From: Syntrophorhabdales bacterium | Lineage (GTDB): Bacteria; Desulfobacterota; Syntrophorhabdia; Syntrophorhabdales; WCHB1-27 | Direction of reading: 5' to 3' | Length of the DNA: 64,000 nt | NCBI GenBank assembly: GCA_050012495.1 | Contig: JBEKHB010000012.1 | Span: forward strand, 5,874-69,873 | Shown: positions 4,157 to 63,191 of the stretch, one piece after another | Layout: each line of letters begins with the position of its first letter | Numbering within the stretch: the first letter of the stretch is position 1 | Translations under genes and position numbers: made by a program | The notes under the pieces: generated by a model | The model's database searches: none | Told to the model about the DNA's origin: nothing | Seen by the model: the letters and a program-made list of their open reading frames with translations, nothing else

Positions 4157-7100
4157 ATGAGCGCCACGACAGAAACATTCGGGCCGGGTACGCCCCTTTA
4201 CAACAGCAAGATCATCCTTGCCTATGTCAGGTTCGCCGAGCGCCGCTGCGCCGGCGTCAATATGAACGAGGTATTGGCCTATGCAGGGATAGAGACCTAC
4301 CAGCTAGGAGATGTGGACCATTGGTTCACGCAGGCGCAGGTGGACCTCTTTCAGGAAAAACTGGCAGAGCTTGCCGGGATCGGGGATATTGCCCGGGAAG
4401 CAGGCAGATATGCCGCGTCTTCGTCATCTATGGGGATCATAAAATATTACGCGCTCAGCTTCGTGAGCCCCATGAAGCTCTGTGAGATGATAGGGAAGAC
4501 CGCCGGCTTTTTTACCAGGTCGGTCGTCTGGGAAACAAAAAACACCGGTCCGCGCACGGTCGAGATCACCGTGACCCCGAGGCCGGGCGCACGGGAAAAA
4601 CCGTTCCAGTGTCAGAGCAGGATCGGGTATCTCGAAGGGATCTCCGAACTCTTCAAGTCCAACCTCCCCGTGGTCGAACAGACCGAATGCGTCTTTCACG
4701 GAGGCCGATGCTGCCGGTACGTCGTGACGTGGTCCGGGCCCCGGTGGGAGGCGCAGAGGAAGATGAGAAATTATCTCGCCCTGTCTCTCTCAGCCCTGTC
4801 TGCCGGCCTGTTCTTCATTTCCACTCCGGGTATCTCTGCCGCTTCCATGCTTGTGACGTTGGCCGTTGTCCTTGCGCTGTCGGCCAGGGCATGGCGCATA
4901 GAAAAAGACGAATTGTGCTCCGCGATAGAGAGCCTGAGGTCCGCGACGGAGATGCTCATCGAGAAGACAGAGGTACATCGGAACCAGGCCCGGCTAATGC
5001 AGGAAACAGGACACGCCCTGGCCAGGCAGAGGAGCATCGAAGGCATACTGCGGGAAGTGGCGCAGCTACTGGAAAAGCGTTTCGATTACGACCGCGGCAT
5101 GATTCTTTTGGCCGATAAGGAGAAGCACGCGCTCAATGTCAGGGCCACCTTTGGATATCCCGAAGAACTGGCGCCTGCCCTTCAGGATATGGTCTTCACG
5201 ACCGGGCCGGAATCACGGTCGTTTCTCATGCGATGTTTCCGCGAACAGAGGCCTTTCCTCATCAACAACGTGGACGAGACCGGGGACCTCCCGGCGTTCT
5301 GCGTGGAATTCACCAGGAAAACAGGGACAAAAGCGTTCATCTGCTGCCCCATAGTGTGCGCCGACGACGCGCTGGGGGTGCTCTCCGTCGGCAACGTGAA
5401 AGCAAAACGCCCCCTGCTCCAGCGAGACATCGACCGCCTCACGCAGCTCGGCCGGCAAACCGGCGGCAGCATCCGCAACCTCACGGCCAGGCAGGCGGAT
5501 AAGGCGGTCAGGGAGAGCGAGGCCCGGTTCCGCGCCGTCGTGGAGAAGTCGGGCGAGGTCATCGCGCTCACCGATGCCCGGGGAAACTTCGTGTACGTCT
5601 CCCCGCCGGTGACCGCAGTCTTCGGCTACTCCCCCGAGGAATTCTGCGGGCAGCACCGGCGCATGCACGTCCATCCCGACGATTGCGGACGCCTGGCAGA
5701 ATTTTCTGCCTGGCTGCGCGCGAACCCGGGGGAGACGAAGGAGCTCGTGGTACGCCTTCGCCATAAAAACGGTGCCTGGCGTTGCGTCGAGATCACCAGC
5801 CACAACCTGCTGGACGAGCCGGGCGTGCGGGCCGTCGTCTCCAACGTGCGTGACATTACCGACCGGAAGATTGCGGAGGAGACACTCAGGGAATCGGAAA
5901 ACAAGTTCAAGAACCTGGTGGAAGAATCGCCGGTGGGCGTCTATCTGATCCAGGACGGGGTCTTCAGGTACGTCAATGCGAAGTTTGCCGAGGTCCATGG
6001 CTATGACGAGTCCGAGATGGTGGAGCGCATGACGGTCGCGGAGACGATGTTTCCCGCAGACGAGGCTTCCATGGAGGAGAAGACCCGGTGGGTGCTCGGG
6101 CAAGACCAATGCCGCACAAGGCAATTCAGGATAGTCACGAAAACCGGGCAGATCAGGCACGTCGAATGCTATGCGACCCGCACCATGTACCGGGGCCGGC
6201 ACGCCGTCATAGGGACGCTGCTCGATATTACGGACCGTAAGGCCGACGAAGAAGCGCTGCGCTGGAAAACTACGTTCCTTGAGGCGCTCGTCAAGTCCAA
6301 CCATGATGGAATCCTCGTCATCGACAGCCAGGGACGGATGCTCATGGAAAACCAGCGGACCGCGGACATATGGAAGATCCCCGAAGACGCCGTCACCGAG
6401 AAGCAGCGGATGGCGCATTTCTTGAGCATGGTCAAGGAGCCGGATCTGCTCCGAGAGAAGATTATCTACCATAAGGACCATCCGGACGAGTCCATGCGCA
6501 CCGAGATCGAGCTCAACACAGGCACCATCGTCGACACCTCTTCGTCTCCCGTCATCGGCGAAGACGGGAGACGGTACGGGAGGATCTGGACCTTCCGCGA
6601 CGTCACGGAGCTGAAACATTACTGGGATATGCTGGTAGACCTCTCCACAACCGACGGACTGACCGGGCTGGCGAACAGGCGGCGCTTCGACGAGTTCCTT
6701 GAGCGGGAATGGCGCAGGAGTGTGCGCGAGGAGTCTGCCCTGTCGCTCATTTTCATGGACATCGATTTCTTCAAGGAGTATAACGACCACTACGGGCATC
6801 TGGCCGGGGATGACTGTCTGCGCCATGTCGCGGGCGTCCTCGGAAGGCTGGTGCAGCGGCCCGGGGACCTTGTTGCCCGCTACGGGGGCGAAGAGTTTGC
6901 GTGCATCCTCCCGGGCACGGACCAGCAGGGCGCGGCAGGGCTTGCGGACAAGATCATGAAGAGCATAAACGGCCTCAACCTCCCCCACGTCGCTTCCCCG
7001 GTCGCGAGCCATGTCACCTTGAGCTTCGGCGTGGCGGCAATGGTCCCGGAAAGGGGACAACCACCGTCGGAGTTGATCCGCCTTGCCGACCATCTCCTTT

Positions 7101-50489: not shown

Positions 50490-51185
50490 TTATGCCGGCG
50501 GGTGACTGCAGAGACTCTCTGTCAGATACTTCCTCAGCTTTTCGACCCTCCCCTTATTGCTGCGGTAAAGCGGCAGAACGTTCTGATATTCCCTTACCTT
50601 GTTTATGTCTTTAAGCTCTTCCACATGAACATCTTTTTCAAGCCACTTCCTCACGTTATGAAATGCACCGATAAACAGAATACCCTTTCCCCCTTCCTGC
50701 AGCGTATCGTTTATCTGCTTCGCAATGAACTTATCCCTTCTTTCCAAAAGCGTATTTTTTGCGAGCTTATACTTCAGGGCCGCGGCAAGCTTTTGCGCCC
50801 GGTTCTTTGCCTGCGTTATCTTGAGAATCCAGGCGCGTTCCTCCTTTACGAGGCTTAAATCTTCCGTCTTGACGAGAACGGCGCCTTTCCCGATCAGTGC
50901 CGAGATGATCTGATAATTCCGGCTGCCTGTCTGAAGAACTTCCCGAACTATTGCCACGGCTGTTTCACCGCCTGCTACCATGCCGTCCTGGTATATCTTG
51001 AAACCCGGTACTTCAATGGAATCAAAATACCCGGCAATTGCGTCCCAGAAACCGAGGACGGTCTCCTCGTGCCTTTTCCAAAGTGTCTCACCGAATTCCC
51101 TCAGACCTCTTGCGGCAATGTCCTCGCCCATGGAGCCGAGGTCCGCCTCTGTGTGGATAATTGGGACGTAGAGTAACGCACGCAT
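50490..51185 (-). CDS. Hypothetical protein (231 aa), last gene of the gas-vesicle operon
   Basis: ATG follows AGGAG, 13 nt downstream of the preceding gvp gene, with the same low GC. No domain recognised. Confidence 0.6.
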   Translation of the reverse strand: MRALLYVPIIHTEADLGSMGEDIAARGLREFGETLWKRHEETVLGFWDAIAGYFDSIEVPGFKIYQDGMVAGGETAVAIVREVLQTGSRNYQIISALIGKGAVLVKTEDLSLVKEERAWILKITQAKNRAQKLAAALKYKLAKNTLLERRDKFIAKQINDTLQEGGKGILFIGAFHNVRKWLEKDVHVEELKDINKVREYQNVLPLYRSNKGRVEKLRKYLTESLCSHPPA

Positions 51186-51198
51186 CCCGGCTCCTGTC

Positions 51199-51495
51199 TT
51201 ATTTCACCCTCTCTTCCAGCCGTTCAATCCTCTTTTTCAATGCCTTTGCCTCATTCTCAATAGCGTGTCTCTTTCTGCCATTGGATAAATAGGGGTCCTG
51301 CTGCCACCAGTTAATCCCCATCTCCATCGCTTTATCGACAGATGCGATCAACAGCCTTATCTTAATGGTTAACAGTTCAATGTCTGCAATTCTTATCTGG
51401 ATGTCTCCTGCAATAACAATTCCTTTATCCAGTACTCTTTCCAGTATGTCGGCAAGATTGGTAGCCTGAATTGCATGCACCATTTGTTCGGCCAT
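51199..51495 (-). CDS. GvpA-family minor gas vesicle protein (GvpJ/GvpM/GvpS type)
   Basis: LADILERVLDKGIVIAGDIQIRIADIELLTIKIRLLIASVDKA is the GvpA/J/M core. Confidence 0.85.
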   Translation of the reverse strand: MAEQMVHAIQATNLADILERVLDKGIVIAGDIQIRIADIELLTIKIRLLIASVDKAMEMGINWWQQDPYLSNGRKRHAIENEAKALKKRIERLEERVK

Positions 51496-51506: not shown

Positions 51507-52040
51507 TTATATCAGATCTCCCAAAGGACCGAGATTAAGATTCATGTCTTCATCCTTGATACCGAAGATCGCCTGGATTTCCTGCATCTTTTTCTTTACC
51601 GCTTTCAGACTTAATCCCAACTTTTGGATCTCAACGGAAGAAAGCGATCCCCTCCGCACTCTCCTGAATGCCTCCTTCTCCATAAGCTTTCTTATCAACT
51701 CGATAATGGTTAAAATGAGCTTTGCCAAACCCTGTTCAGTTTCCCTCGGGCTGTCTGCGTGTATAATCCTGGGGATGTTTTCTTCGGCCTTTTTTATCTC
51801 GTTTTGTAATTTCTCGATATAGGCGATGTCTTCTTTGGTCAATGCCTTTTCGGGGCTGCCGGGGCGCCTTCCCGATAACTCCTCAGCCTTGGCAACAGAA
51901 GTGAGTATGAGCCTCAAACCCAGAAACACCAGGTCTACATCCGCTATCCGTAGCACCATGTCGCCGTTGATAACCACTCCCTTTTCCACGACCTTGTCCA
52001 GGACATCAAACAGCGCAACCCTCTCATGTGTAGCTGTCAT
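51507..52040 (-). CDS. Fusion protein: N-terminal GvpA/J-family domain plus C-terminal GvpK domain
   Basis: N-terminus: LFDVLDKVVEKGVVINGDMVLRIADVDLVFLGLRLILTSV (GvpA/J core). C-terminus: GLAKLILTIIELIRKLMEKEAFRRVRRGSL...IQAIFGI (GvpK signature). ATG 52040 overlaps the upstream stop (ATGA). Confidence 0.8.
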   Translation of the reverse strand: MTATHERVALFDVLDKVVEKGVVINGDMVLRIADVDLVFLGLRLILTSVAKAEELSGRRPGSPEKALTKEDIAYIEKLQNEIKKAEENIPRIIHADSPRETEQGLAKLILTIIELIRKLMEKEAFRRVRRGSLSSVEIQKLGLSLKAVKKKMQEIQAIFGIKDEDMNLNLGPLGDLI

Positions 52041-52876
52041 GCCGTCTCCTGCGGCCCGTAGGAATCGGTAAAATTGAAGGGCGGCCACGGGCCGCTGTAT
52101 TCGAGGTGAAGCCCCTTTGTGCGAAGCTCCCCGGCGGTGCCGTCAACGGTCTTCTTGAATGCATCGAGCTTATCTGCATGGACTAAAAAGGCTGCATTGA
52201 AAACCATCCTCTCTGTTTTGCCCGTCATCTCTCTGTCAAGAATCCTTGTCCTTACGGATTCTGTTGCCTCTTCACCCAGTTTTCCGAAGAGCTTTTCCGA
52301 AGCGGCGTCCAATTCTTTGTCTGCCTCATGACGAACGGCCTCTTTCAGCTCTTCTTCCATAAAGTAGGCCATGCCCTCGGGCATTGAGGCAATTTCCTGC
52401 TCTTTCAACCTTATTTCCGCATTATTTTCCTTAACCGTCAGCTCAAATCTTTCTTCATCCATAAGATATACCTTCACATTCCATTCCTGTTTCCCTTGAA
52501 TCTTATGCAACAACCCGCTCATCTTTGCATGGTTCCTGTCAAGGGTTTCTTTCAGTCCTGCCTCGTCGTTAAAAATGGTGCCGAACCTCATGGGGATCAC
52601 GCTGACAAGCCCATCAATCCCCCCCATGGCCTCTTCGATAACGTCTTCGTGGATGAGAACCTTTTCCTTGATCCAGTCAAGGTCTCCCCGGGCCTTTTTC
52701 TGAATTTCTTCGGAGGTGAATTTCACCAGGGAAACTCTGCTGACAACCGCCTCGATCTCGCCCTGGACGATGGTGAAAATTCCCCTTTCTCCCTCAATGT
52801 CTCCCGTACGAAACGCTGAAGGCTCTTCAGTTTTTTCCCGCACACAATAAAGATACAATCCCTCCATACCCTTCAC
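52037..52876 (-). CDS. GvpF/GvpL-family gas vesicle protein (paralogue 4)
   Basis: LYLYCVREK...IEAVVSRV...HEDVIEEAM...YSGPWPPFNF are family hallmarks. Confidence 0.9.
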   Translation of the reverse strand: MKGMEGLYLYCVREKTEEPSAFRTGDIEGERGIFTIVQGEIEAVVSRVSLVKFTSEEIQKKARGDLDWIKEKVLIHEDVIEEAMGGIDGLVSVIPMRFGTIFNDEAGLKETLDRNHAKMSGLLHKIQGKQEWNVKVYLMDEERFELTVKENNAEIRLKEQEIASMPEGMAYFMEEELKEAVRHEADKELDAASEKLFGKLGEEATESVRTRILDREMTGKTERMVFNAAFLVHADKLDAFKKTVDGTAGELRTKGLHLEYSGPWPPFNFTDSYGPQETA

Positions 52877-53139
52877 GCCTGCGATTGGTGGTTTGCAATC
52901 TTCTTTTCGTATGACTGAACCTCCAGGTTTTCATCAACCCTCACCTTATAGATGTTCAGATCCTTCACCTTCGTCGGCAGCCCGCAAGATTTGATGAGTG
53001 CGCTCTCTTCATATACCTCGACCTCTTCCTCCCACCCTTCGGGCGTTCTTGTGATCTTTACCACCTTCGCATCCTCTGCTGAGAGAATACTTTTAAAGAA
53101 CCCCTTCGTCGCCTGGGTAACTTCTGCAATATTTGCCAT
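52873..53139 (-). CDS. gvpO: Gas vesicle protein GvpO
   Basis: VVKITRTPEGWEEEVEVYEE...NIYKVRVDENLEVQSYEKK matches the GvpO pattern (GW..vEvvE ... YeV.ld..g.v.sY.r). AGGAGG RBS. Confidence 0.75.
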   Translation of the reverse strand: MANIAEVTQATKGFFKSILSAEDAKVVKITRTPEGWEEEVEVYEESALIKSCGLPTKVKDLNIYKVRVDENLEVQSYEKKIANHQSQA

Positions 53140-53168: not shown

Positions 53169-53405
53169 TTACCCCTCTTCTCCTTCCGCGTACATCGCAT
53201 GCAACCGTTCGAGAAGCGCCTTTTCCTGCCTCGTGTAGGTCTCTTCATCTATCTCATCCAGCTCGAACCGCAATTGCAATTCCATAAGCCGTTCCTTGAC
53301 AAGCCCCTCGTCGGACATCTCGTGCTGAGCCATATCGTTAACCTTTTCGCTCAGCCAGATAATGCCTCTCAATGGTGAAAGAATTATGTCATCGATGAGG
53401 AACAT
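53169..53405 (-). CDS. gvpG: Gas vesicle protein GvpG
   Basis: MFLIDDIILSPLRGIIWLSEKVNDMAQHE...RLMELQLRFELDEIDEETYTRQEKALLERL is the typical GvpG sequence. Confidence 0.85.
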   Translation of the reverse strand: MFLIDDIILSPLRGIIWLSEKVNDMAQHEMSDEGLVKERLMELQLRFELDEIDEETYTRQEKALLERLHAMYAEGEEG

Positions 53406-53489: not shown

Positions 53490-54254
53490 TCATCCTCCCA
53501 TGTTTATCACCAGGTTCACAAAATTGAACGGCGGCAGGGTTCCCACATATTTAAACCTCACTTTGTCGTTATACCTATCTGCAAGCCCCTGAACTTCCCT
53601 GTCAAACTCCGCCTCTTTCTCTTGCGCTACCAGAAAAGCGGCGTTCATAATCATCAGCTCGCCATAGGTAGTGTTTATCCTGGCCTGTTCGCAAAGGGGC
53701 GATAATCTTCGTAATGCATCATCCTTATAGAAGTCCCTTTCCTTTTGGAGTGCTGCTTCAACCATCCTGCCTATCTCCATCCTCTGGTAATATGATTTTT
53801 CAGGGAGCAACGGTATAATCTGCTCTTTCAGGGCCTTTATATCATCATTTTTCTCGAGAATTTCCTTATACAGCACGTGTTCCTGGAACAGCATCTTCAC
53901 GCCGAGCTCTTTCTTGCCGTGCATGGTTTTTAATAACTCGATGAATTTGCGGTGCTCTCGCTCTAATATCAGTCTTACCGTTTCCACATTTTCAGCAATT
54001 GTCGCAAACCTGACCGGCAGCACCGTATGGGTTTTCATTACCTCTTCAATGACCCGCTCATGAGAAATGAGATACTCCCGGGCAACAGGATATTTTTTGA
54101 CAGGCGAATTGCTCACCACAGCCCCGATATCCCGGAAGGGTACGGTATATACCGCGTCACCCCTTCCACCAATGCCGACGGCGCCGAACGACAGAGGTTC
54201 CTTTGACTCATTTATGCAATATATGTATACCCCGTCTTCCAAAGTCGCTCCCAT
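53490..54254 (-). CDS. GvpF/GvpL-family gas vesicle protein (paralogue 3)
   Basis: VYIYCINES...IGAVVSNS...HERVIEEVM...YVGTLPPFNF. ATG 54254 lies 9 nt after GGAGAGG. The track start, GTG 54260, is the alternative. Confidence 0.9.
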   Translation of the reverse strand: MGATLEDGVYIYCINESKEPLSFGAVGIGGRGDAVYTVPFRDIGAVVSNSPVKKYPVAREYLISHERVIEEVMKTHTVLPVRFATIAENVETVRLILEREHRKFIELLKTMHGKKELGVKMLFQEHVLYKEILEKNDDIKALKEQIIPLLPEKSYYQRMEIGRMVEAALQKERDFYKDDALRRLSPLCEQARINTTYGELMIMNAAFLVAQEKEAEFDREVQGLADRYNDKVRFKYVGTLPPFNFVNLVINMGG

Positions 54255-54260
54255 AAACAC

Positions 54261-55031
54261 TCACCTCTCCCACTCTTCCTGATAAATGGTGATATTCACA
54301 AAGTTATAGGGGGGCCAGGGTCCTGCGTACAAAAACCATATTCTTTCTTTGTAGGCGTCGCTAACCTCCTCCATGACATTGTCAAATTCTTTCTCCCTCC
54401 CTTTGCTCACCAAAAATGAGCCATTCATGAACATCCCGTCGCCAATGGTAGTGTTCAGCTTATAATCGAATGCCGATGTCTTTAATGCAGCAACAATCCT
54501 TTCGGCGTCTTCCGCCTTTTTGTGCTTCAGTGCAGCCTCGACAAGTTTGCCCAGTTCTATTTTTGCCTGAATATTCTCCCGCTGCACGTCCCCTTTCGGC
54601 GTTCTCCTTATTTTTTTGATCTCTTTGCTCTCCTCTGCAATCTCCCTGAAGATAATGTCCATATCTTTCCACAGCCCCTTCACGCCAAGCTCCACCTTGT
54701 GATCCATGTCCCTCAGAACATTCTTGAATTCCCTGTACCTTTTGAATAACAGGCTCCTTATCTCATCGGCACTCGAGGCAATGGTACAGAACCTCACCGG
54801 CAACACAGTATGCTCCTTCATCACCTCTTCAATAACCTTTTCGTGAGCCAGGATGTTGTCCCGGTTCACCACAAGCTTCGTTAAAGGGTGAGCGCTGATT
54901 ACCATTGCAAGGTCATCGATACCGATAGTGCCCACCTCGTCGCCCCTGCTCCCGATGCCGATAGGGCCAAATGTTCTGTCTTGTTTTGCGTTGATGATGC
55001 AGTATATATATTTTCCTTCACGATCCATCAT
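54261..55031 (-). CDS. GvpF/GvpL-family gas vesicle protein (paralogue 2)
   Basis: KYIYCIINAK...LAMVISAH...HEKVIEEVM...YAGPWPPYNF. ATG 55031 overlaps the upstream stop (ATGA). The track start at 55106 is inside the upstream gene. Confidence 0.9.
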   Translation of the reverse strand: MMDREGKYIYCIINAKQDRTFGPIGIGSRGDEVGTIGIDDLAMVISAHPLTKLVVNRDNILAHEKVIEEVMKEHTVLPVRFCTIASSADEIRSLLFKRYREFKNVLRDMDHKVELGVKGLWKDMDIIFREIAEESKEIKKIRRTPKGDVQRENIQAKIELGKLVEAALKHKKAEDAERIVAALKTSAFDYKLNTTIGDGMFMNGSFLVSKGREKEFDNVMEEVSDAYKERIWFLYAGPWPPYNFVNITIYQEEWER

Positions 55032-56053
55032 TGTTCCTTTACCGTGACGATTATCGAATTTTCTGCAAAGTCTTCTTTTTTGAAAGAACACGCATCGTGT
55101 TGACAATATGCTGAAAGCAGCCTGTATGCATTGGTGATTTCAATATATTCCGTTTCTGTCTCGCCATTTTGCCTGTCGGACTGCTTATCGGGATGATACA
55201 CAGAGGCATATTTCCTGTAGGCCTTTTTTATCTCGTCTTTCGTTGCAAAGGCGTTCAGAGCAAGTTTTTCCTTTGCCCGCTCAATTTCGTCGTACTGCAA
55301 TTGTTCTATCTCAAGCACATAAAAGTTATATGGTGGAAGTGGACCGACGCACTTGAAATGGACCTTTCCGCCAAAACTGCCGCTTAATTCATCCAGCCTT
55401 TCTTCAAAACGGATGTGCCTGGGCTTGTCGATAAAGAAGGCTGCATTCATGATTGTCGCGTCATTCAGCATCGTATATTCTTTTATGCTCCGGCACAGGT
55501 CTTCCAATGAGTCCTTTATAGTGAGGGCGTATTCATGTTTTTTCTTATCCAGACAACTTTTAATGAGCATGCCTGCTTTCATTTGATCATCGACCGTGAT
55601 GCCCGCCTTCTTGTTGAAAAGGACCTGTTTTACTGCCCTTACCTCTTCTTCTTCGGATACCTCTTGTATGACCGCATGAAGATCGACCCAGGTGGCGACG
55701 ACATCAAGCTCTATCCTGCCTTCGATCTTTGCAAAAACCTCTTTAAACACGTGGTATCCCTTCATCAGGGCCAGCATCACCTCATCTTCACCGAGCACAT
55801 ACGTGCCCAGCCTCGCAGGGATGACGGTAAACGCCTTCATCAACTTTTCCATCACCACCTGATGCTCGATGAGGCGCCTTGCCGCAGCGTCGCCCGGCAG
55901 CTTTCCATAGTCAATTATCTCGGAATCACCCACTGCCGCAGAAACATCCTTATAAGGGACGGTGTAAATGCCGTGTGAAGTGAGCATAGTTGAACCCGCC
56001 GCATGGGATTCATTATTGATCACGCCATATATGCACTTACCTTTATCGTTCAT
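55028..56053 (-). CDS. GvpF/GvpL-family domain fused to a C-terminal DnaJ-type J domain
   Basis: Residues 1-245 form a GvpF/L fold (CIYGVINNE...HQVVMEKLM...[10 protein letters not shown]). Residues about 255-316, [33 protein letters not shown]...[14 protein letters not shown], form a J domain with its HPD at nt 55187-55195. Confidence 0.9.
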
Positions 56054-58260
56054 GCGTCACCCTGTCCCGCGGAAATAGATTCTTTCTGCTTTTGCACCAA
56101 TCGCAATGCCTCCTCGAAATGCCTCTTCGATATAGTAAGTTGCGCGCGCGCGTTGGGTTTCGCGTTTTGGGTGTGGTTTACATATTCCCTTATGGTCAAC
56201 ATAGACGCTTTCCGGCAAATAAATTCTATGTCCGATCCTGCCAGGCCGACGGTCTCTTTTGCGAGCGCCCGCAAATCCACATCCTTGCCAAGAGGTTTGT
56301 TCTTCGTATGGATCCCAAATATGGATAAACGTGTGTCTTCATCAGGAAGGGGCAGCTCGATGACAAGATCGAATCTTCCACCTCTCAGGAGCGCCGGGTC
56401 AATCATATCGAGCCGGTTGGTAGCGGCCAGCACCACCACTCCCTTGAGTTCTTCAATACCGTCCATTTCGGCCAGGAACTGGCTCACAACCCGTTCCGTC
56501 ACGCCTGACTCGGCAATCCCCGAACCCCTTCTCGGCACTACGGCGTCGATCTCGTCAAAAAATATGATAGCCGGGGAAGCCTGTTTTGCTGTTTTGAAGA
56601 CTTCACGGATGCCCTTCTCACTTTCACCCACAAATTTTGACATGAGACTCGGCCCCTTTATGGAGATAAAATTGACTTTCGTCTCGCTTGCAACCGCTTT
56701 TGCAAGTAAGGTTTTTCCCGTACCCGGCGGTCCATGAAGGAGAATCCCCTTGGGCGGGTGTGTGCCGGCAGCTCTAAAGACATCAGCGTACTTAATGGGC
56801 CATTCTACCGCCTCCTTCAATTCCTGTTTGATCTCTTCGAGGCCGCCCACGTCATCCCATCGCACATCGGGCACCTCGACAAACACCTCCCGTATGGCAG
56901 AGGGTTCAACCTCTTTCATGGCATCCAGGAAATCGTCCATAGTCACTTCCAGCTTGAGGAGCGTCTCATAAGGGATTTCATCCACGTCGAAATCAATCCG
57001 CGGTAAAATCTTCCGGAGTGCAGACATGGCTGCCTCCCTTGCCAGCGCCTCCAGGTCCGCACCAACGAAGCCATGGGTAATCTCGGCCAATTTTTCCAGA
57101 TCGACCCCGTCGTGCGCTTCACCGCTTCCCTGACCGGGTTCTCCTGAGAGGGGCATACCCCTCGTATGGATCTGCAATATATGCAGTCTTCCGTTTCTGT
57201 CCGGAATGGGGATTGAAATCTCCCTGTCGAACCTCCCCGGTCTCCTTAGAGCCGGGTCGAGGGTATTGGGAATATTTGTTGCCCCGATGACAATTACCTG
57301 TCCCCGCGACTGCAATCCGTCCAGGAGCGACAGGAGTTGGGCGACAACACGCCGCTCAACCTGTTTTTCTCCGCCCATGTCTTCCCTTTTCGGCGCAATG
57401 GCATCAATTTCATCAATAAAGATTATCGAAGGGGTATGCTTCTGGGCATCATCAAATATGGACCTGAGACGCGCTTCGCTTTCTCCGTAAAATTTACCCA
57501 TGATTTCCGGGCCGCTGATACTTGTGAAGTACGCCTCGGTCTCGTTCGCCACGGACCGGGCGATCAATGTCTTCCCTGTGCCGGGAGGCCCATAGAGCAG
57601 TACACCTTTAGGCGGGTCAATTCCGAGTCTCTCGAATATCTGCGGGTATTTCAAAGGCAGCTCGATCATCTCCCTGATTCTTTGAATCTGATACCCCAGT
57701 CCTCCGATGTCTTCATAGGAAATCTTCGCGATTTTCGGCTCACCTGCCTCCCTCGATTCTATTTCTATTTGTGTTGCCGGATTTATCGCCACCACGCCGT
57801 CGGGGGTAGTAGTGAGAACCTTGAAATCGCTTGACCGTGAGCCAAAAAGCGTCACCCTTACCCTGTCTCCCGTGATTACAGGCAGACCCTCGATCAGCGT
57901 GCCGATATACCTGGCATCCCTATCTTTTTGAGGCAGGCTTGAAAGGGTTAGGGGGGAAAGCTTTACCCTTGCTGCACGCTTGTGATCGACCTTCAGAACC
58001 TTTACCTTCTCGTCTATGCCGACCTTGGCATTCTCCCTCGTTATGCCGTCCATCTGTATGATCTTTTTTCCTCTCTCTTCAACATAACAGGGCATCAGCT
58101 TCACCGGGGTCTTTCTTTTCCCTTCAATCTCCACGATATCGCCGACATCCAATTCGAGCAGCTTCATGTCCTCGGGGTCAATCCGGACAATGGCCCTCCC
58201 CACGTCCTTCGGCAACGCCTCTTTCACTTTGAAAGCCGGGGGCGACTCTTCATCTTTCAT
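56050..58260 (-). CDS. Cdc48/VCP/p97-type double-ring AAA+ ATPase
   Basis: N-terminal Cdc48-like domain ([29 protein letters not shown]). Two AAA modules with [14 protein letters not shown] and [14 protein letters not shown], plus Walker B IIFIDEID and IIFFDEID. Length 736 aa. Confidence 0.95.
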
Positions 58261-58278
58261 TGTTGCCGTTCCTCCGTT

Positions 58279-59217
58279 TTATTGAAACAGCAATTCCTTA
58301 AAGTCATTCAAGGCATCGATACCCTTCACTTCCCGCGGGCGCAGCGGGACAAGTGTTATCCGGGTAGTGCCCATTTGTTCTCTCAAGTAATTGATGTAGT
58401 CTTCCTCTCCTTTCCTTTTTTCTTTGCAAAATTCACAATGGTCATTCAACGGCACTACATTGTTGACCACCAATTGTTTTATTGTTATCCCGTATTTATT
58501 CAATTCAGCGATCATCTTCTCTGCCTCCCGGACAGCCATGTATTCCGGTATTGTCACCACGATGAATTCACACCTTTTAAGGTCTTTAAAGAGGCTGCGT
58601 ATCCTGGCGACGGTTCTTTTCATCTCCACAAGAAAATCATCGCCTTCGTCGGGTTTATAGGCACCGCCGAGGGTTGTCAAAACATAGCGGTATTTCCATC
58701 TCATCTTTGCCATGACCCTGATCCATTCATCGAGCATGCCCGGCAGCGTTAAAAGCCTCAGGGCATGACCCGTGGGCGCCGTATCGACAACGACCTTATC
58801 AAATCTCCCCTCTTCAATCAGGTCTGTTATGGTCTTTAACCCCATAACTTCATCTAAACCCGGGATCGGAAGTGACAGGACCGATTCGATATCTTCCGAA
58901 TCCAGATAGGTTGACGTGTCGATAATCTTTTTTATCTGTTCTTCGTACCGCACCTTGAAGGCTGAAAAAGTTTTTTTTGCGCTTATCTCAATCGCACTCA
59001 GATTTGTTACGCCTTTAATGTCCTGAACTCCATCTCCGATCTTCTGTCCCAGACTGTCCGACAGGGAATGGGCCGGATCGATAGAGATAATTAACGTGTG
59101 GCATGTTTCCGACAAATGCAGACCGGCACTTACCGCGCACGTTGTTTTTCCAACGCCGCCCTTGCCGCCGAAGAGAATCAGTCTCAAAGGGGCATCCCTC
59201 AGTCCGGTCAATCCCAT
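58279..59217 (-). CDS. ArsA/Get3 (TRC40)-family P-loop ATPase, single-domain
   Basis: Deviant Walker A FGGKGGVGKTT and family signature VVDTAPTGHALRLL. Length 312 aa. Confidence 0.9.
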   Translation of the reverse strand: MGLTGLRDAPLRLILFGGKGGVGKTTCAVSAGLHLSETCHTLIISIDPAHSLSDSLGQKIGDGVQDIKGVTNLSAIEISAKKTFSAFKVRYEEQIKKIIDTSTYLDSEDIESVLSLPIPGLDEVMGLKTITDLIEEGRFDKVVVDTAPTGHALRLLTLPGMLDEWIRVMAKMRWKYRYVLTTLGGAYKPDEGDDFLVEMKRTVARIRSLFKDLKRCEFIVVTIPEYMAVREAEKMIAELNKYGITIKQLVVNNVVPLNDHCEFCKEKRKGEEDYINYLREQMGTTRITLVPLRPREVKGIDALNDFKELLFQ

Positions 59218-59229
59218 TGAGAATCCCCT

Positions 59230-59766
59230 TCATTTCTTTATCGTAATCTCAAGTATGCCGTTCTTAAAAGAAGAGGCAAGGGTCTCGCTTTTCCCCTTTG
59301 CGGGAAGGAGAAGCTCCTTGCGATATTTTTTGTCTCCGCTTTTCGCGGAAATATTGAGTATGTCCCCCAACAGGTCCATCTTTATGTCGTTCTCATTCAC
59401 CCCGGGCATTTCCGCGTAGACACGGATTTCATCTTTTTCGTCAAAAACATCGGTAATCGGCTCCCTTTCTTCTTCGACCTTTGCTCCGCGAGGGGTTTTT
59501 TTAATATTGCCGAAATGTTCGACAACCGGTTTTCCTCCTGTGGCCGTCTTTATGGAAAACCCGAAGACGCCTTTCATGCCCTCTTTCAGGTCGCTTAAGT
59601 CTATGGCGCCTTCTTTCTTTATTTCACCGCCTGCTTTTTCCATCTCGGATACGAGGTCCACCAGGTTTTGAACGCCTTTAAACAGGTCTCCCATCCCCAG
59701 GTCTCCCATTCCAAGCTCAATCTTGATTGAATCGTCGCGCTTTTTGCTGCGTTTTTTTTCCGCCAT
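59230..59766 (-). CDS. Small heat-shock protein (Hsp20/alpha-crystallin), GvpH-like context
   Basis: Alpha-crystallin domain ITDVFDEKDEIRVYAEMPGVNENDIKMDL...SSFKNGILEITIKK. ATG 59766 follows GGGGGGA. The N-terminal region is Lys/Gly-rich. Confidence 0.85.
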   Translation of the reverse strand: MAEKKRSKKRDDSIKIELGMGDLGMGDLFKGVQNLVDLVSEMEKAGGEIKKEGAIDLSDLKEGMKGVFGFSIKTATGGKPVVEHFGNIKKTPRGAKVEEEREPITDVFDEKDEIRVYAEMPGVNENDIKMDLLGDILNISAKSGDKKYRKELLLPAKGKSETLASSFKNGILEITIKK

Positions 59767-59799
59767 TTCTCCCCCCCTTACATGTTCCGAACGCCGCAT

Positions 59800-60105
59800 T
59801 CAATACCTGATCGGCATTGTCCTCAAAGGGTTCGTCTTTGTGCACGCGGCGGTCTTTATCGCCCCGGCTTCCTGTATCTCCCCTTGTAATCCGGCAATCA
59901 GTTTATTTACGTCGCGCAACAAGCGACCGGTTATTTCCCGTTTCTTTTCCAGCGCAGCAACTTCTTTTTCCAGCCTGTCCTTCTCCCTTTTCAGCGAGTA
60001 CAGGTCAAGATAAGGGGACCTCTGAACCTTCGGGACCGACCGTGCGCCGATGGAATGCATGCTTCTCACGTTCCTGATTGTTGTGATCTCGTGCAAAGCT
60101 TTCAT
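59800..60105 (-). CDS. Hypothetical coiled-coil protein (101 aa) between gvpN and the sHsp gene
   Basis: GAGGAGG RBS. A heptad-like segment LYSLKREKDRLEKEVAALEKKREITGRLLRDVNKLIAGLQGEIQEA. No family recognised. Confidence 0.6.
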   Translation of the reverse strand: MKALHEITTIRNVRSMHSIGARSVPKVQRSPYLDLYSLKREKDRLEKEVAALEKKREITGRLLRDVNKLIAGLQGEIQEAGAIKTAACTKTNPLRTMPIRY

Positions 60106-60148: not shown

Positions 60149-61066
60149 TTAGTTCATATGTGTGGCCACCAGGCCCTCGACAATCTCCTTCACCCTGTTT
60201 TGATTTGTCTTAGAGCCTACCCTGCTCGTCACGGAAGCCAGTATGTCCTGACACATCCGGCTGAAAGCCCCGTTTGAACGGGATGGTGAAATGTTCCGGA
60301 CCTTCGCTGCCTTTGCAATCATTATGCAGGCACGAATTGTCGGTGCGAATTCGCACTTGCCCGATTCTCTCAGATCCCTCACGATCCGCACTATCTTCTC
60401 TACATCTTTTTTGGGAAGTCTGGATTTTGCGCGGGTAATGGCCACCTCCGTATCATAGTCAAAATGGTCTAAATCCATCGTTACCATTCTGTCCCTCAAG
60501 GCATCCTGACTTCTGTGCACTCCTGCATATTCCTCAGGATTACTTGTAAATATCGCGGTAAAATGCGGGTGCACCTTAAGGTATGGCCCCTCTCCCCCCC
60601 TTTCCGAGGGCAAATCCATAATCCGTTCCTGCAGAATAGACAAAAGGATATTATTCGCCTCCGGACGCGACCGTGTAAACTCATCGTAGATGAGGGTGAA
60701 TCCGGCCCTGCATGCCACGGTCAGACGGTTGTCAACCCATCTCTTGACCATGTCTTCTTCCGTCTTGAGAACCCTTGAGACAAAACGGTCCACCACTTTT
60801 CTCATCCTGTAGCCATATTCACCACCTACAAGATTGGATGTGGTCAACTCCTCATCTCCATGAATTAGGACAACCGGTCTCCCTATCTTGTGTGCGACAT
60901 GCATGGCGAGGGTAGTTTTACCGGTGCCTGAAACCCCTCTGAAATGCACCGGAAAACCCGCCTTGATGTAAGAAATCGCTCTGCCGGCGGTATCCTTTAT
61001 GTAGTTCGTTTCCACAAAATCATGCAAAGCAGATGGTTCTAAGAGCGTTGCGTTCTCCTCAATCAT
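60149..61066 (-). CDS. gvpN: Gas vesicle protein GvpN (MoxR-like AAA+ ATPase)
   Basis: FRGVSGTGKTTLAMHVAHKIGRPVVLIHGDEELTTSNLVG and LIYDEFTRSRPEANN match GvpN. Length 305 aa. Confidence 0.9.
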   Translation of the reverse strand: MIEENATLLEPSALHDFVETNYIKDTAGRAISYIKAGFPVHFRGVSGTGKTTLAMHVAHKIGRPVVLIHGDEELTTSNLVGGEYGYRMRKVVDRFVSRVLKTEEDMVKRWVDNRLTVACRAGFTLIYDEFTRSRPEANNILLSILQERIMDLPSERGGEGPYLKVHPHFTAIFTSNPEEYAGVHRSQDALRDRMVTMDLDHFDYDTEVAITRAKSRLPKKDVEKIVRIVRDLRESGKCEFAPTIRACIMIAKAAKVRNISPSRSNGAFSRMCQDILASVTSRVGSKTNQNRVKEIVEGLVATHMN

Positions 61067-61199: not shown

Positions 61200-62144
61200 T
61201 TAAACCCGATAATAAAGACCGCCCTCTTTTCTGATCTTGCCTTCATCCAGCAGTTTTTTTGCCAGTACACCCAATCTCAATCTGGGCACACCGAAAACCG
61301 GCTCCATGTCGCCAACCCTTACCCCGTTGTGCTGCTGATTGATGTATCCCAGAACCTTTTCTTCAATATCAACGTCCTGATGTGGCTTTTCTGCGTGCGG
61401 CCTCTCTTCTTCGATTGCCTCCCGGACCGCAGCAACCTTATTGTGGATTTCGACGGATGGCATTGCGGTCTCCACTTTTAAACCGGTGAGCGTTCCTTCC
61501 CAGAAGTGTCCCGCCTGCGTCATATCCGTATGGTATTCCTGCAAAAGTTTCCCGACCCCACGTGCTATATCGTTTGCATACGCAGCCAGGCTTTTTCTCA
61601 AGGCATCGCTCATCTCGCCATGAGATGCGTCAAATTCTTTCAGTTTATTCTTGACATAGCTTTCGATGTTTTTTACATCCCTTTCACGTCTGCTCTTACG
61701 CTCCGCCGACATCTCACCCCGTGTTCTTCTGAACTTGTTCACCATGGCGCCGGCATCCTTTGTGAGTGATGCGACAAACTCCGACAGGTCCTTTGCCTGT
61801 TCGCTGCCCATCTGACGGTGTTCTTTTAAAAATTGATCCAGCATCTTTTTGGTGTTTGTCGTGAGATTATGCGAAAACTCCGACAGATCCTTTGCTTGTT
61901 CGCTGCCCATTTTGTGATGCTTTTTGCGAAAGTCTTTCAGCATATCCTCCACGCTTTTGGATAGGCCACCCTGGAAATCCTGTAGGTCTTTGCGCTGCTT
62001 ACGACCCATGGCATGCCGTTCCTCCGCAAAATCCTCTACAGTCTTTTTTGTGTCAAGCAATAGATCTCCAAGGGCTTTTACTCTCACATTGCGCGAAGTA
62101 ACGATCTGTTCCGCCAAGTCTTTCATGCTGTGTGCCATAGCCAT
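61200..62144 (-). CDS. GvpC-like repeat protein (five consecutive 33-residue repeats) with a C-terminal winged-helix-like domain
   Basis: The M-G/S anchors at residues 46, 79, 112, 145 and 178 are spaced exactly 33 aa apart (HKMGSEQAKDLSEFSHNLTTNTKKMLDQFLKEH / RQMGSEQAKDLSEFVASLTKDAGAMVNKFRRTR ...). The 99-bp DNA periodicity is visible around 61750-61920. The C-terminus is EEKVLGYINQQHNGVRVGDMEPVFGVPRLRLGVLAKKLLDEGKIRKEGGLYYRV. Its position between gvpA and gvpN matches cyanobacterial gvpC. Confidence 0.7.
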   Translation of the reverse strand: MAMAHSMKDLAEQIVTSRNVRVKALGDLLLDTKKTVEDFAEERHAMGRKQRKDLQDFQGGLSKSVEDMLKDFRKKHHKMGSEQAKDLSEFSHNLTTNTKKMLDQFLKEHRQMGSEQAKDLSEFVASLTKDAGAMVNKFRRTRGEMSAERKSRRERDVKNIESYVKNKLKEFDASHGEMSDALRKSLAAYANDIARGVGKLLQEYHTDMTQAGHFWEGTLTGLKVETAMPSVEIHNKVAAVREAIEEERPHAEKPHQDVDIEEKVLGYINQQHNGVRVGDMEPVFGVPRLRLGVLAKKLLDEGKIRKEGGLYYRV

Positions 62145-62159: not shown

Positions 62160-62867
62160 CTATGGATCACGCTGTGTGTCGGTTTGCTGGTTCCCGCCTT
62201 TTTTTCTGAATGTACTGAGCATCTTTTGCACGCCTTCTTTCCTTTCCCGCTGCTGCGCTGCCCTTTCCCTGGATTGAGCCTCAAACTGCTTGAGCATCGT
62301 TTTTAAATCTCTTATCCTGAGCTCCCTCCCTTTGGAAAGAAGTTCCCCAAGGGAGCGAGATAACTGACCTTGTTCTTTTTGAAGTATCTTCAGTGTGGCG
62401 GCAAGTTCCGCCTTTCTCTCTTCCTGCTTTTTAAGAATATCCGTGAGCACCTCATGGAAGTCATTGATTCTGCCGATATTGTCCGTGTTCAGGCCATCCT
62501 TGAATGTTCCCAGATTTTCCTTGAGCCGCCTTGCCATTTCTCTCTGCTCAGTGAGATAGTTGTGAAGCAGTTTCCTCACCGCTCTCTCTCTGTCATCTTG
62601 AGAGAGGAGAATGGTATTCATCATCGCGTCAAAATCCTTTTTCCTGAGAGATTCGTTCCTCGCAAGGGTCTCGCGAAGCCGAACGTGTAATGCCTCCTTT
62701 TCCTCCTTTCCATGTGACATTGATTCCTGAAATTCACCAAGAACCATTTGCGTGTTGTCAATGATGAGGCTCATGCTCTGAAGCTTTTCCTCATAGGAAG
62801 AAATAATTCCTTCAACTACATGAGTCGCATTTACGCTGTCTGTCATTGGGGCCCTTGGGTCCGGCAT
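62160..62867 (-). CDS. Hypothetical charged coiled-coil protein (235 aa) directly downstream of gvpA
   Basis: Long helical, charged sequence with recurring (K/R)D(F/L)..M(M/L)..(I/F) motifs (KKDFDAMMNTIL, INDFHEVLTDIL, IRDLKTMLKQF) that resemble motifs in the neighbouring GvpC-like protein. Confidence 0.65.
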   Translation of the reverse strand: MPDPRAPMTDSVNATHVVEGIISSYEEKLQSMSLIIDNTQMVLGEFQESMSHGKEEKEALHVRLRETLARNESLRKKDFDAMMNTILLSQDDRERAVRKLLHNYLTEQREMARRLKENLGTFKDGLNTDNIGRINDFHEVLTDILKKQEERKAELAATLKILQKEQGQLSRSLGELLSKGRELRIRDLKTMLKQFEAQSRERAAQQRERKEGVQKMLSTFRKKGGNQQTDTQRDP

Positions 62868-62984: not shown

Positions 62985-63191
62985 TTACGCTGCCGTCGCG
63001 GTAAGGCCGATCGCCTCGGCATACTTCAGATAGGTCTCCACTGACGCCACAACAACCCTGGCTTCAATGGCAAGTATTTCTATACCTACCAGAGAAACCC
63101 TCACCCATGCATCGACGACCACACCCTTGTCAAGAATTCTGTCGATGACTTCCACTAAACTGGACGATGCTATTGCCTTTTCCACTGCCAT
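62985..63191 (-). CDS. gvpA: Major gas vesicle structural protein GvpA
   Basis: [63 protein letters not shown] is the near-canonical GvpA sequence. GGAGGTG RBS. Confidence 0.97.

Follow-up and report, generated by a model that had tools for sequence, protein, structure and literature searches.

A GvpH-type small heat-shock protein, a Get3-like ATPase and a Cdc48-type unfoldase encoded within a widespread type of bacterial gas-vesicle cluster

Gene content of the locus and identity of the three proteins

The 64,000-nucleotide stretch of DNA considered here (the window) originates from a Syntrophorhabdales bacterium (assembly GCA_050012495.1, contig JBEKHB010000012.1, positions 5,874 to 69,873) and carries on its minus strand a gas-vesicle (gvp) operon of 12.7 kb, as delimited from a list of open reading frames (ORFs) and from scans with Pfam and NCBIfam models. 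Within this operon three consecutive genes encode a small heat-shock protein (sHsp), an ATPase of the ArsA/Get3 family and a double-ring AAA+ protein of the Cdc48/VAT type, referred to below as the trio. The operon begins with gvpA, followed by two conserved unannotated genes, gvpN, a 101-residue ORF, the trio, a GvpF/L gene with a J domain, two further GvpF/L genes, GvpG, GvpO, another GvpF/L gene, a GvpJ-GvpK fusion, a GvpA-like gene and a 231-residue ORF (Table 1). The trio is thus flanked upstream by gvpN and the 101-residue ORF, and on the other side by four GvpF/L genes, the first of which is J-fused.

The sHsp and ArsA genes are separated by 12 nucleotides (nt) and the ArsA and Cdc48 genes by 18 nt, and the Cdc48 gene overlaps the J-domain GvpF/L gene by 4 nt. 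A first-pass annotation made from the sequence alone had described this arrangement of three consecutive genes and had assigned their families; the arrangement is reproduced in full in the ORF list, and the calls of an sHsp, a single-domain Get3/ArsA ATPase and a Cdc48 protein with an N domain and two AAA modules are secure by their Pfam and NCBIfam scores. Independent transcription of the trio is not supported by a promoter and terminator scan, a weak test: promoter-like sites number 11 against 11.0 expected, with no surplus of internal signals within the trio, and the sole notable hairpin of the minus strand, which is terminator-like, lies outside the trio at 61197-61180, upstream of gvpN.

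The Cdc48/VAT family is usually treated as archaeal and eukaryotic. The window protein scores 950 bits against TIGR01243 (cutoff 802.65), possesses an N domain recognized by both CDC48_N (92.3 bits, gathering threshold 35.1) and CDC48_2 (44.2 bits, gathering threshold 22.4), and contains two AAA modules (315 bits). Its top match in the PDB is the Thermoplasma VAT structure 5g4f (771 bits, full length, 54% identity). Among 77 sequences the D1 motifs GPPGTGKT, DEID and RRPGRFD and the D2 motifs GxPGTGKT, DEID and RxGRFD are invariant or nearly so, and the pore loops are likewise conserved, as K-F-Y-G in D1 (KYYG in VAT) and [KR]-[YF]-[IV]-G in D2. By these motifs the enzyme looks active and catalytically intact, with the signature of a threading unfoldase in which both rings would be engaged. 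In archaeal Cdc48 a C-terminal HbYX motif, which is not family-defining, mediates docking to the 20S proteasome. This tail is absent from all orthologues checked, the C-termini of which are variable; coupling to the proteasome was therefore rejected, and unfolded products would probably be released and not passed to a 20S particle.

Another operon-encoded ATPase, GvpN, is found in all gvp clusters and, according to a gvp interaction study, is considered to prepare or proofread GvpA (PMC11445434). GvpN differs from Cdc48 in that it has one AAA_5 module only and lacks pore loops for threading. Since gvpN is also present in the window, Cdc48 would add to GvpN and not replace it.

The middle gene of the trio encodes an ATPase that matches PF02374 (ArsA_ATPase) with 246 bits and TIGR00345 (GET3_arsA_TRC40) with 252.8 bits (cutoff 135). 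The protein aligns over its full length with archaeal Get3 (M. jannaschii 3ug6, E 1.5e-51), the alignment spanning the helical subdomain without large deletions and placing CEFC opposite CDFC of M. jannaschii Get3, the position of the zinc-binding dimer motif. Across 69 sequences GKGGVGKT, DPAHSL, DTAPTGH, RWKYRY and CxFC are conserved; the deviant Walker A and switch II motifs and C264 are each kept in at least 95%, and C261 in at least 75%. The ATPase is single-domain throughout, measuring 304-339 residues in the 67 loci where it is full-length, and is split into two ORFs in one locus (L077). An assignment to the arsenical pump ArsA (TIGR04291) was rejected, as the 312-residue protein scores 121 bits against a cutoff of 650 and matches one half only.

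A single-domain ATPase of this kind would form a homodimer through the CxxC zinc site. It shares with Get3/TRC40 the deviant Walker A, the switch II sequence DTAPTGH, the CxxC dimer motif and a full-length, fold-level alignment, but nothing resembling a Get1/2-type receptor or a membrane target is apparent here, and the presumed clients, the GvpA family, are not the tail-anchored membrane proteins handled by Get3/TRC40. Homologues of arsA together with hsp20 were noted in 2010 by Castillo & Saier in gvp operons of Polaribacter, Pelodictyon, Geobacter, Anabaena/Nostoc and an acidobacterium, and the ATPase was proposed to energise a step of biogenesis (PMC2963123). The setting is shared, an ArsA-family ATPase and hsp20 standing beside gvpN/F/L/G/J/K/M, but the ArsA of that study (PMC2963123) is a two-domain protein of ~637 residues and Cdc48 goes unmentioned, whereas the ATPase described here is single-domain with a Get3-type CxxC. 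A variant cluster from an Ignavibacteria metagenome-assembled genome (MAG; locus L071, 9230-21390) carries three sHsp genes, Cdc48, GvpF/L-J and a member of the 231-residue family, and encodes a 684-residue two-domain ArsA at a different position, so that the single-domain and two-domain types of gvp-linked ArsA are distinct.

The longest ORF of the sHsp gene spans 59230-59799, and the start that is conserved in homologues corresponds to M12, at 59766. The protein scores 31 bits against HSP20 (PF00011, gathering threshold 20.8) and 136.7 bits against the archaeal Hsp20 model NF041800 (cutoff 140). As this was the weakest of the three family calls, the protein was modelled with AlphaFold2, and the C-terminal 80 residues reach a predicted local distance difference test (pLDDT) score of ~90; the N-terminal half is conserved in sequence and is not confidently modelled. 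The best Foldseek match is the alpha-crystallin domain (ACD) of S. solfataricus Hsp20.1 (4rzk, E 3e-9, root-mean-square deviation 0.8 A, 51% identity), and of the 71 PDB matches at E <= 0.001 those listed are mostly sHsps.

The sHsp is also homologous over its full length to a Methylosinus protein that bears the annotation-pipeline (PGAP) name GvpH (34% identity, E 8e-24). Against the Pfam GvpH model (PF05455, gathering threshold 22) the window protein scores 13.3 bits, a homologue 71% identical to it (P0312) 25.2 bits and the Methylosinus homologue 28.9 bits, and a profile of 34 sHsp relatives aligned by hhalign with Halobacterium GvpH gave a probability of 91.4% (E 8.9e-7, 153 columns). Halobacterium GvpH is non-essential and prevents aggregation of GvpM, and its loss results in weaker vesicles (PMC9501494). 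These alignments make the sHsp a probable homologue of GvpH from haloarchaea, and, given the role of GvpH in vesicles, the first gene of the trio would be a form of a known Gvp protein. The homology covers the N-terminal motif as well as the ACD-like C-terminus; the sHsp is, however, much closer to canonical archaeal Hsp20, and the window cluster has no GvpI, the partner of GvpH in haloarchaea.

Distribution, co-evolution and phylogeny of the module

Relatives of the window Cdc48 were collected by a protein scan of one genome per species across 185,579 species. Among the 538 relatives obtained the best 80 (67-93% identity) were analysed, and all 17 proteins of the window cluster were mapped onto these loci, most of which are MAG contigs. 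The Cdc48 gene lies within a gvp cluster, with the same order gvpN-(x)-sHsp-ArsA-Cdc48-GvpF/L-J, in all 80. By their record titles the loci span at least 12 phyla, with representatives among the Desulfobacterota/Syntrophorhabdaceae, Omnitrophota, Cloacimonadota, Nitrospirota, Nitrospinota, Sumerlaeota, Planctomycetota, Saganbacteria, Elusimicrobiota, Bacteroidota, Ignavibacteria, Kiritimatiellota and Verrucomicrobiota, and for many of the MAGs the title points to a sample from a lake, groundwater or a fen. A complete Cdc48 ORF is present in 79 loci; ArsA stands directly upstream of it in 67 and the sHsp, without ArsA, in 8, the remaining 4 being cut by a contig end. Median gaps in these 79 loci are 5, 12 and 29 nt.

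Pairwise distances of the neighbouring proteins correlate closely with those of Cdc48 (ArsA 0.93, sHsp 0.94, GvpN 0.92, GvpF/L-J 0.93, two other GvpF/L proteins 0.86 and 0.96), so that the cluster is inherited or transferred as a unit. The first-pass annotation had made its proposal depend on the three genes being conserved in related gvp islands and had pointed to co-evolution as a check. The module is kept in every one of the best 80 loci and correlates with the core gvp genes at r = 0.86-0.96, so that the proposal is not refuted on this count.

A second lineage was encountered when complete plasmids were searched by tblastn. No Cdc48 of the window type (>60% identity) was found on these plasmids; genes at 50-53% identity are present in two cultured organisms, Methylocella tundrae T4 and Methylosinus sp. 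C49, in plasmid-borne gvp clusters ordered GvpJ - gvp - sHsp - hypothetical - Cdc48. The Cdc48 genes of Rhizobium, Methylobacterium, Microvirga and Sphingomonas (47-49% identity) have no gvp or Hsp20 neighbours. On plasmid pMSC49b of Methylosinus sp. C49 (L082, 1-3011) a sigma-54-dependent regulator, a PAS protein and a response regulator precede the Cdc48-bearing gvp cluster; no such regulators were seen adjoining the window cluster.

In a neighbour-joining tree of Cdc48 (700 columns, 100 bootstraps), which includes only seven non-gvp sequences, all gvp-linked sequences form one group at 99% bootstrap, to the exclusion of the other alphaproteobacterial Cdc48 proteins, Thermoplasma VAT and a Halobacterium Cdc48. 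As far as this thin sampling of non-gvp relatives goes, the grouping indicates one old recruitment and a gas-vesicle-specific subfamily of Cdc48.

The nearest known arrangement is found in archaea, in which hsp20 and VAT/Cdc48 genes form a heat-shock pair. In P. furiosus HSP20 and VAT1 are adjacent and Phr-regulated (PMC10746257), and archaeal Hsp20 and VAT/Cdc48 belong to the Phr and HSR1 (Archaeoglobus) regulons (PMC10653856). A pair of this type was also located on plasmid pNRC200 of Halobacterium salinarum NRC-1 (L090, 2558-5208), where Hsp20 lies 65 nt upstream of Cdc48 on the same strand, ~140 kb from the classical gvp cluster of the plasmid. The window genes share with the archaeal pair both families, their order and their orientation, and the window proteins are nearest to archaeal structures. 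They differ in occurring in bacteria, within a gas-vesicle operon and with a Get3-like ATPase between them, and in having no HbYX tail and a gvp-linked Cdc48 clade of their own.

This resemblance raises the question of whether the module is a generic stress module, that is, an archaeal-type Hsp20-Cdc48 pair hitch-hiking in a mobile gvp island without a client specific to gas vesicles. Adjacent, heat-induced Hsp20 and VAT/Cdc48 genes do occur in archaea away from gvp genes, and Merino et al. took an hsp20 gene adjoining gvp genes as a link to heat shock (PMC7325909). Such an explanation is nevertheless very improbable, as the operon position is fixed, with tiny gaps, in all of the best 80 loci, the trio co-evolves with gvp genes, the gvp-linked Cdc48 proteins form a clade distinct from stand-alone bacterial and archaeal Cdc48, and the sHsp is a probable homologue of GvpH, for which a gas-vesicle phenotype is known.

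Because of its position, its co-evolution and its clade specificity, the trio is very probably an integral part of one widespread type of gvp cluster and a module dedicated to gas vesicles. The earlier assignment of the three genes to the gas-vesicle system is in this respect strongly supported by their constant context, the distance correlations, the second lineage, the monophyly of Cdc48 and the invariant motifs.

Two observations touch on the occurrence of the module in archaea. A 3.1-kb contig binned as Methanomicrobium sp. (L087; GCA_028700035.1, JAQVTL010000215.1) carries gvpN, the 101-residue ORF, the sHsp, ArsA and the N-terminal part of Cdc48 at ~71% identity, and may represent either a cluster in a methanogen or a mis-binned contig. 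In addition, Mthe_0064-0068, located between two Methanothrix gvp clusters, possibly constitute the same module.

Companion genes of the cluster

The GvpF/L protein encoded next to Cdc48 matches GvpL_GvpF with 151 bits and, at residues 264-314, DnaJ (PF00226) with 45.8 bits (gathering threshold 27.8), with the HPD motif at 286-288. A GvpF/L gene with a C-terminal HPD follows Cdc48 in 68 of 69 loci. A GvpL/F-DnaJ fusion (DnaJ 28 bits) is also found on plasmid pOA238_160 of Octadecabacter arcticus 238 (L085, 12289-13371), in a cluster that lacks ArsA and Cdc48. Fusion of a J domain to GvpF/L is thus a feature of bacterial gvp clusters in its own right, and one that seems to have gone unremarked. 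The tie between the trio and the J-domain fusion that had been drawn at the outset is therefore weaker than was implied.

Two further genes accompany the module. For the 101-residue ORF no Pfam or NCBIfam match was obtained at E 0.001, and a laxer scan gave only sub-threshold matches (E 0.009-0.06); its homologues (32-85% identity) hold this position in most loci outside the Bacteroidota. In the Bacteroidota loci a GvpA/J-like gene is found in its place. The 231-residue protein, the family of which is present in most of the best 80 loci, is related to proteins annotated as hypothetical in Methylocella and Methylosinus (31% identity, E 1e-26 and 3e-24), and these are encoded between the sHsp and Cdc48 genes of the respective gvp clusters. 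Homologues lie at 4370-4927 of locus L081, at 8405-8986 of L082 and at 13588-14205 of L071, next but one to Cdc48. The protein is likely a companion of the module. Its family counts 877 relatives, and the 120 listed are all without a Pfam domain and almost all named hypothetical. Although its AlphaFold2 model has a pLDDT of 90.8, Foldseek gave no fold match in the PDB (best E 0.5, TM < 0.3). A role as a TraB/TIKI-type peptidase partner, considered from a weak TraB/PrgY/GumN match (E 0.006) and GxxH-like motifs, was given no support by Foldseek and was rejected.

The two conserved unannotated genes downstream of gvpA retain their order in nearly all of the best 80 loci. The product of the second (61200-62144) has only weak apolipoprotein-like helical matches and contains the internal repeat MGSEQAKDLSEF twice; both may encode GvpC-like shell-binding proteins or regulators. 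Near the other end of the operon, one ORF combines a Gas_vesicle (GvpA/J-type) domain with a GvpK domain in an apparent GvpJ-GvpK fusion, the predicted GTG start of which overlaps the preceding GvpF/L ORF by 52 nt, so that its true start is uncertain.

Table 1. Genes of the gas-vesicle operon in the window, from its head to its last gene
Gene	Position	Strand	Remarks
gvpA	62985-63191	-	NCBIfam GvpA 131 bits; operon head
conserved unannotated gene 1	62160-62867	-	directly after gvpA; without family match
conserved unannotated gene 2	61200-62144	-	without family match
gvpN (MoxR-type AAA+)	60149-61066	-	TIGR02640 341 bits (cutoff 267); upstream boundary of the module
101-residue conserved ORF	59800-60105	-	abuts longest sHsp ORF; without family match above threshold
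GvpH-type sHsp, 178 residues	59230-59766 (longest ORF to 59799)	-	HSP20 PF00011
single-domain Get3/ArsA ATPase, 312 residues	58279-59217	-	PF02374, TIGR00345
Cdc48/VAT double-ring AAA+, 736 residues	56050-58260	-	TIGR01243
GvpF/L with C-terminal J domain	55028-56053	-	GvpL_GvpF and DnaJ
GvpF/L	54261-55106	-	Pfam
GvpF/L	53490-54260	-	Pfam
GvpG	53169-53405	-	Pfam
GvpO	52873-53139	-	Pfam
GvpF/L	52037-52876	-	Pfam
GvpJ-GvpK fusion	51507-52088	-	Pfam
GvpA-like gene	51199-51495	-	Pfam
231-residue protein	50490-51185	-	last cluster gene; no PDB fold match

The gene content of the cluster bears on the possibility that the module is a post-translational regulator, the ATPase unfolding or removing a regulator or a limiting Gvp protein and thereby setting the amount or timing of vesicles, in functional analogy to the NTPase GvpD, which acts on GvpE in haloarchaea. 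Haloarchaeal clusters do include the NTP-binding repressor GvpD (PMC9501494), and the Pfam and NCBIfam scans recognized neither GvpD nor GvpE in clusters of the window type. However, no regulator gene is consistently adjacent, no protease partner is apparent (there is no HbYX tail, and the peptidase idea for the 231-residue protein is unsupported), and the close association with two proteins of the holdase type points to hydrophobic clients in bulk. A regulatory role is accordingly regarded as quite improbable.

Possible functions and significance

The trio is inferred to be a protein-handling module derived from the archaeal-type Hsp20-Cdc48 heat-shock pair, and family membership suggests for its products the activities of a holdase (the sHsp), a Get3-like clamp and an unfoldase. 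Few known proteins are as prone to aggregation as GvpA, which forms aggregates even in the presence of SDS and is believed to require chaperones at all times (PMC11445434). Assembly-time quality control of Gvp subunits by the sHsp, the Get3-like ATPase, the J domain and Cdc48 is a proposal with roughly even chances of being right. Here, the GvpH-type sHsp would hold the very hydrophobic subunits of the GvpA/J/M family without ATP, and the Get3-like homodimer, zinc-linked via CxxC, would clamp and release hydrophobic segments under the control of ATP. The J domain on the neighbouring GvpF/L could recruit the Hsp70 of the host, and the aromatic pore loops of the Cdc48/VAT-like hexamer would thread Gvp subunits that had left the pathway, aggregated or been wrongly incorporated. 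Subunits so threaded would regain an assembly-competent state, which would amount to quality control during assembly. The logic of a holdase, a J-domain recruiter and a hexameric threading AAA+ protein is shared with the disaggregation system of sHsp, Hsp70/J-protein and ClpB/Hsp104, but the AAA+ protein is here of the Cdc48/VAT type, the J domain is fused to GvpF/L, and all parts are encoded within the operon of an organelle.

Several observations weigh against this proposal. ArsA is missing from the 8 loci mentioned above, and the cultured, gas-vacuolate Octadecabacter arcticus 238 has a cluster ordered gvpN - sHsp - GvpL/F..., with GvpL/F-DnaJ and without ArsA and Cdc48, both of which are also absent from the gvp cluster of Halobacterium pNRC200; neither protein is thus needed for gas-vesicle formation as such. 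The alphaproteobacterial gvp clusters that contain Cdc48 lack ArsA and the J fusion, so the four parts need not act as one relay. The C-terminal IXI/V extension is absent in 73 of 73 sHsp homologues, which end 0-3 residues past the last beta-strand, and the sHsp would accordingly differ from canonical oligomeric sHsps, in which such a tail is present. The reliance on MAG contigs and the few non-gvp sequences in the Cdc48 tree count on the same side. Taken across clusters, the sHsp and the J fusion are common features, and ArsA and Cdc48 are optional extras that have been inserted after the sHsp gene and ahead of the first GvpF/L gene.

This optional status suits turnover of the vesicle better than it suits core assembly, and the principal alternative to quality control is an active dismantling, in which the Cdc48-type hexamer would extract GvpA from collapsed or intact shells and the sHsp and Get3-like proteins would catch the subunits, enabling cells to clear collapsed envelopes, to reuse GvpA or to lower their buoyancy. 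Extraction of subunits from stable assemblies is a hallmark of Cdc48/VAT enzymes, the aromatic pore loops of both rings are invariant and of the processive type, and the missing HbYX tail implies release of the product in preference to hand-over to the 20S particle. The genomic data fit assembly-time quality control equally well, however, and the module lies among assembly genes, downstream of gvpN and in one operon with them, so that it would be made while vesicles are being built; dismantling is therefore considered unlikely. A narrower form of it is slightly less likely still, namely that the gvp-linked Cdc48 clade constitutes an organelle-specific 'segregase' that pulls GvpA from the shell, with the Get3-like and GvpH-like proteins as acceptors. 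If true, this would mean ATP-driven dismantling or recycling of an organelle for which collapse and dilution are otherwise taken to be the only routes of loss.

The module had at first been put forward as a candidate undescribed accessory system, a claim that stands in part. The sHsp is a probable GvpH homologue, ArsA and Hsp20 in gvp operons had been published (PMC2963123), and Hsp20-Cdc48 is a known archaeal pair; what is new to the searchable literature is the presence of Cdc48, the wide occurrence of the cluster type, and a Get3-type ATPase that is single-domain and has a CxxC motif. Searches combining gas vesicles with Cdc48, Get3 or unfoldase retrieved no paper that by title and abstract concerns these proteins in gvp clusters (for Get3 no paper at all), subscription-only literature aside, and the papers that name gas vesicles and cdc48 together all concern haloarchaea. 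Among the papers on gas vesicles that name an unfoldase, one refers to engineered ClpXP degrons, and no title announces a native gas-vesicle unfoldase. For Hsp20, the relevant papers identified were the 2010 study and an actinobacterial note. ArsA, Hsp20 and Cdc48 go unmentioned in a recent gvp review, and in the interaction study GvpN is the sole AAA+ component that turns up by term (PMC11445434). It thus appears that neither the Cdc48-type unfoldase of gvp operons, which is conserved and clade-specific, nor their single-domain Get3-type ATPase has been described or studied before.

Methylocella tundrae T4 and Methylosinus sp. C49, which are cultured and carry the sHsp-x-Cdc48 arrangement on plasmids, are tractable starting points for further work. 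Proteotoxicity and poor assembly limit the use of heterologously expressed gas vesicles as ultrasound reporters, and co-expression of the module might help. A 23.5-kb region of Desulfobacterium vacuolatum (FWXY01000008:1268-24724) was expressed by Hurt et al., and this cluster gives rise to vesicles in E. coli at 30 C (PMC10344784). More generally, a bacterial, organelle-specific subfamily of Cdc48/VAT can be defined, and for the problem of how GvpA is kept soluble, how it is inserted into the growing shell and what becomes of collapsed shells, the four parts encoded in these clusters provide testable candidates.

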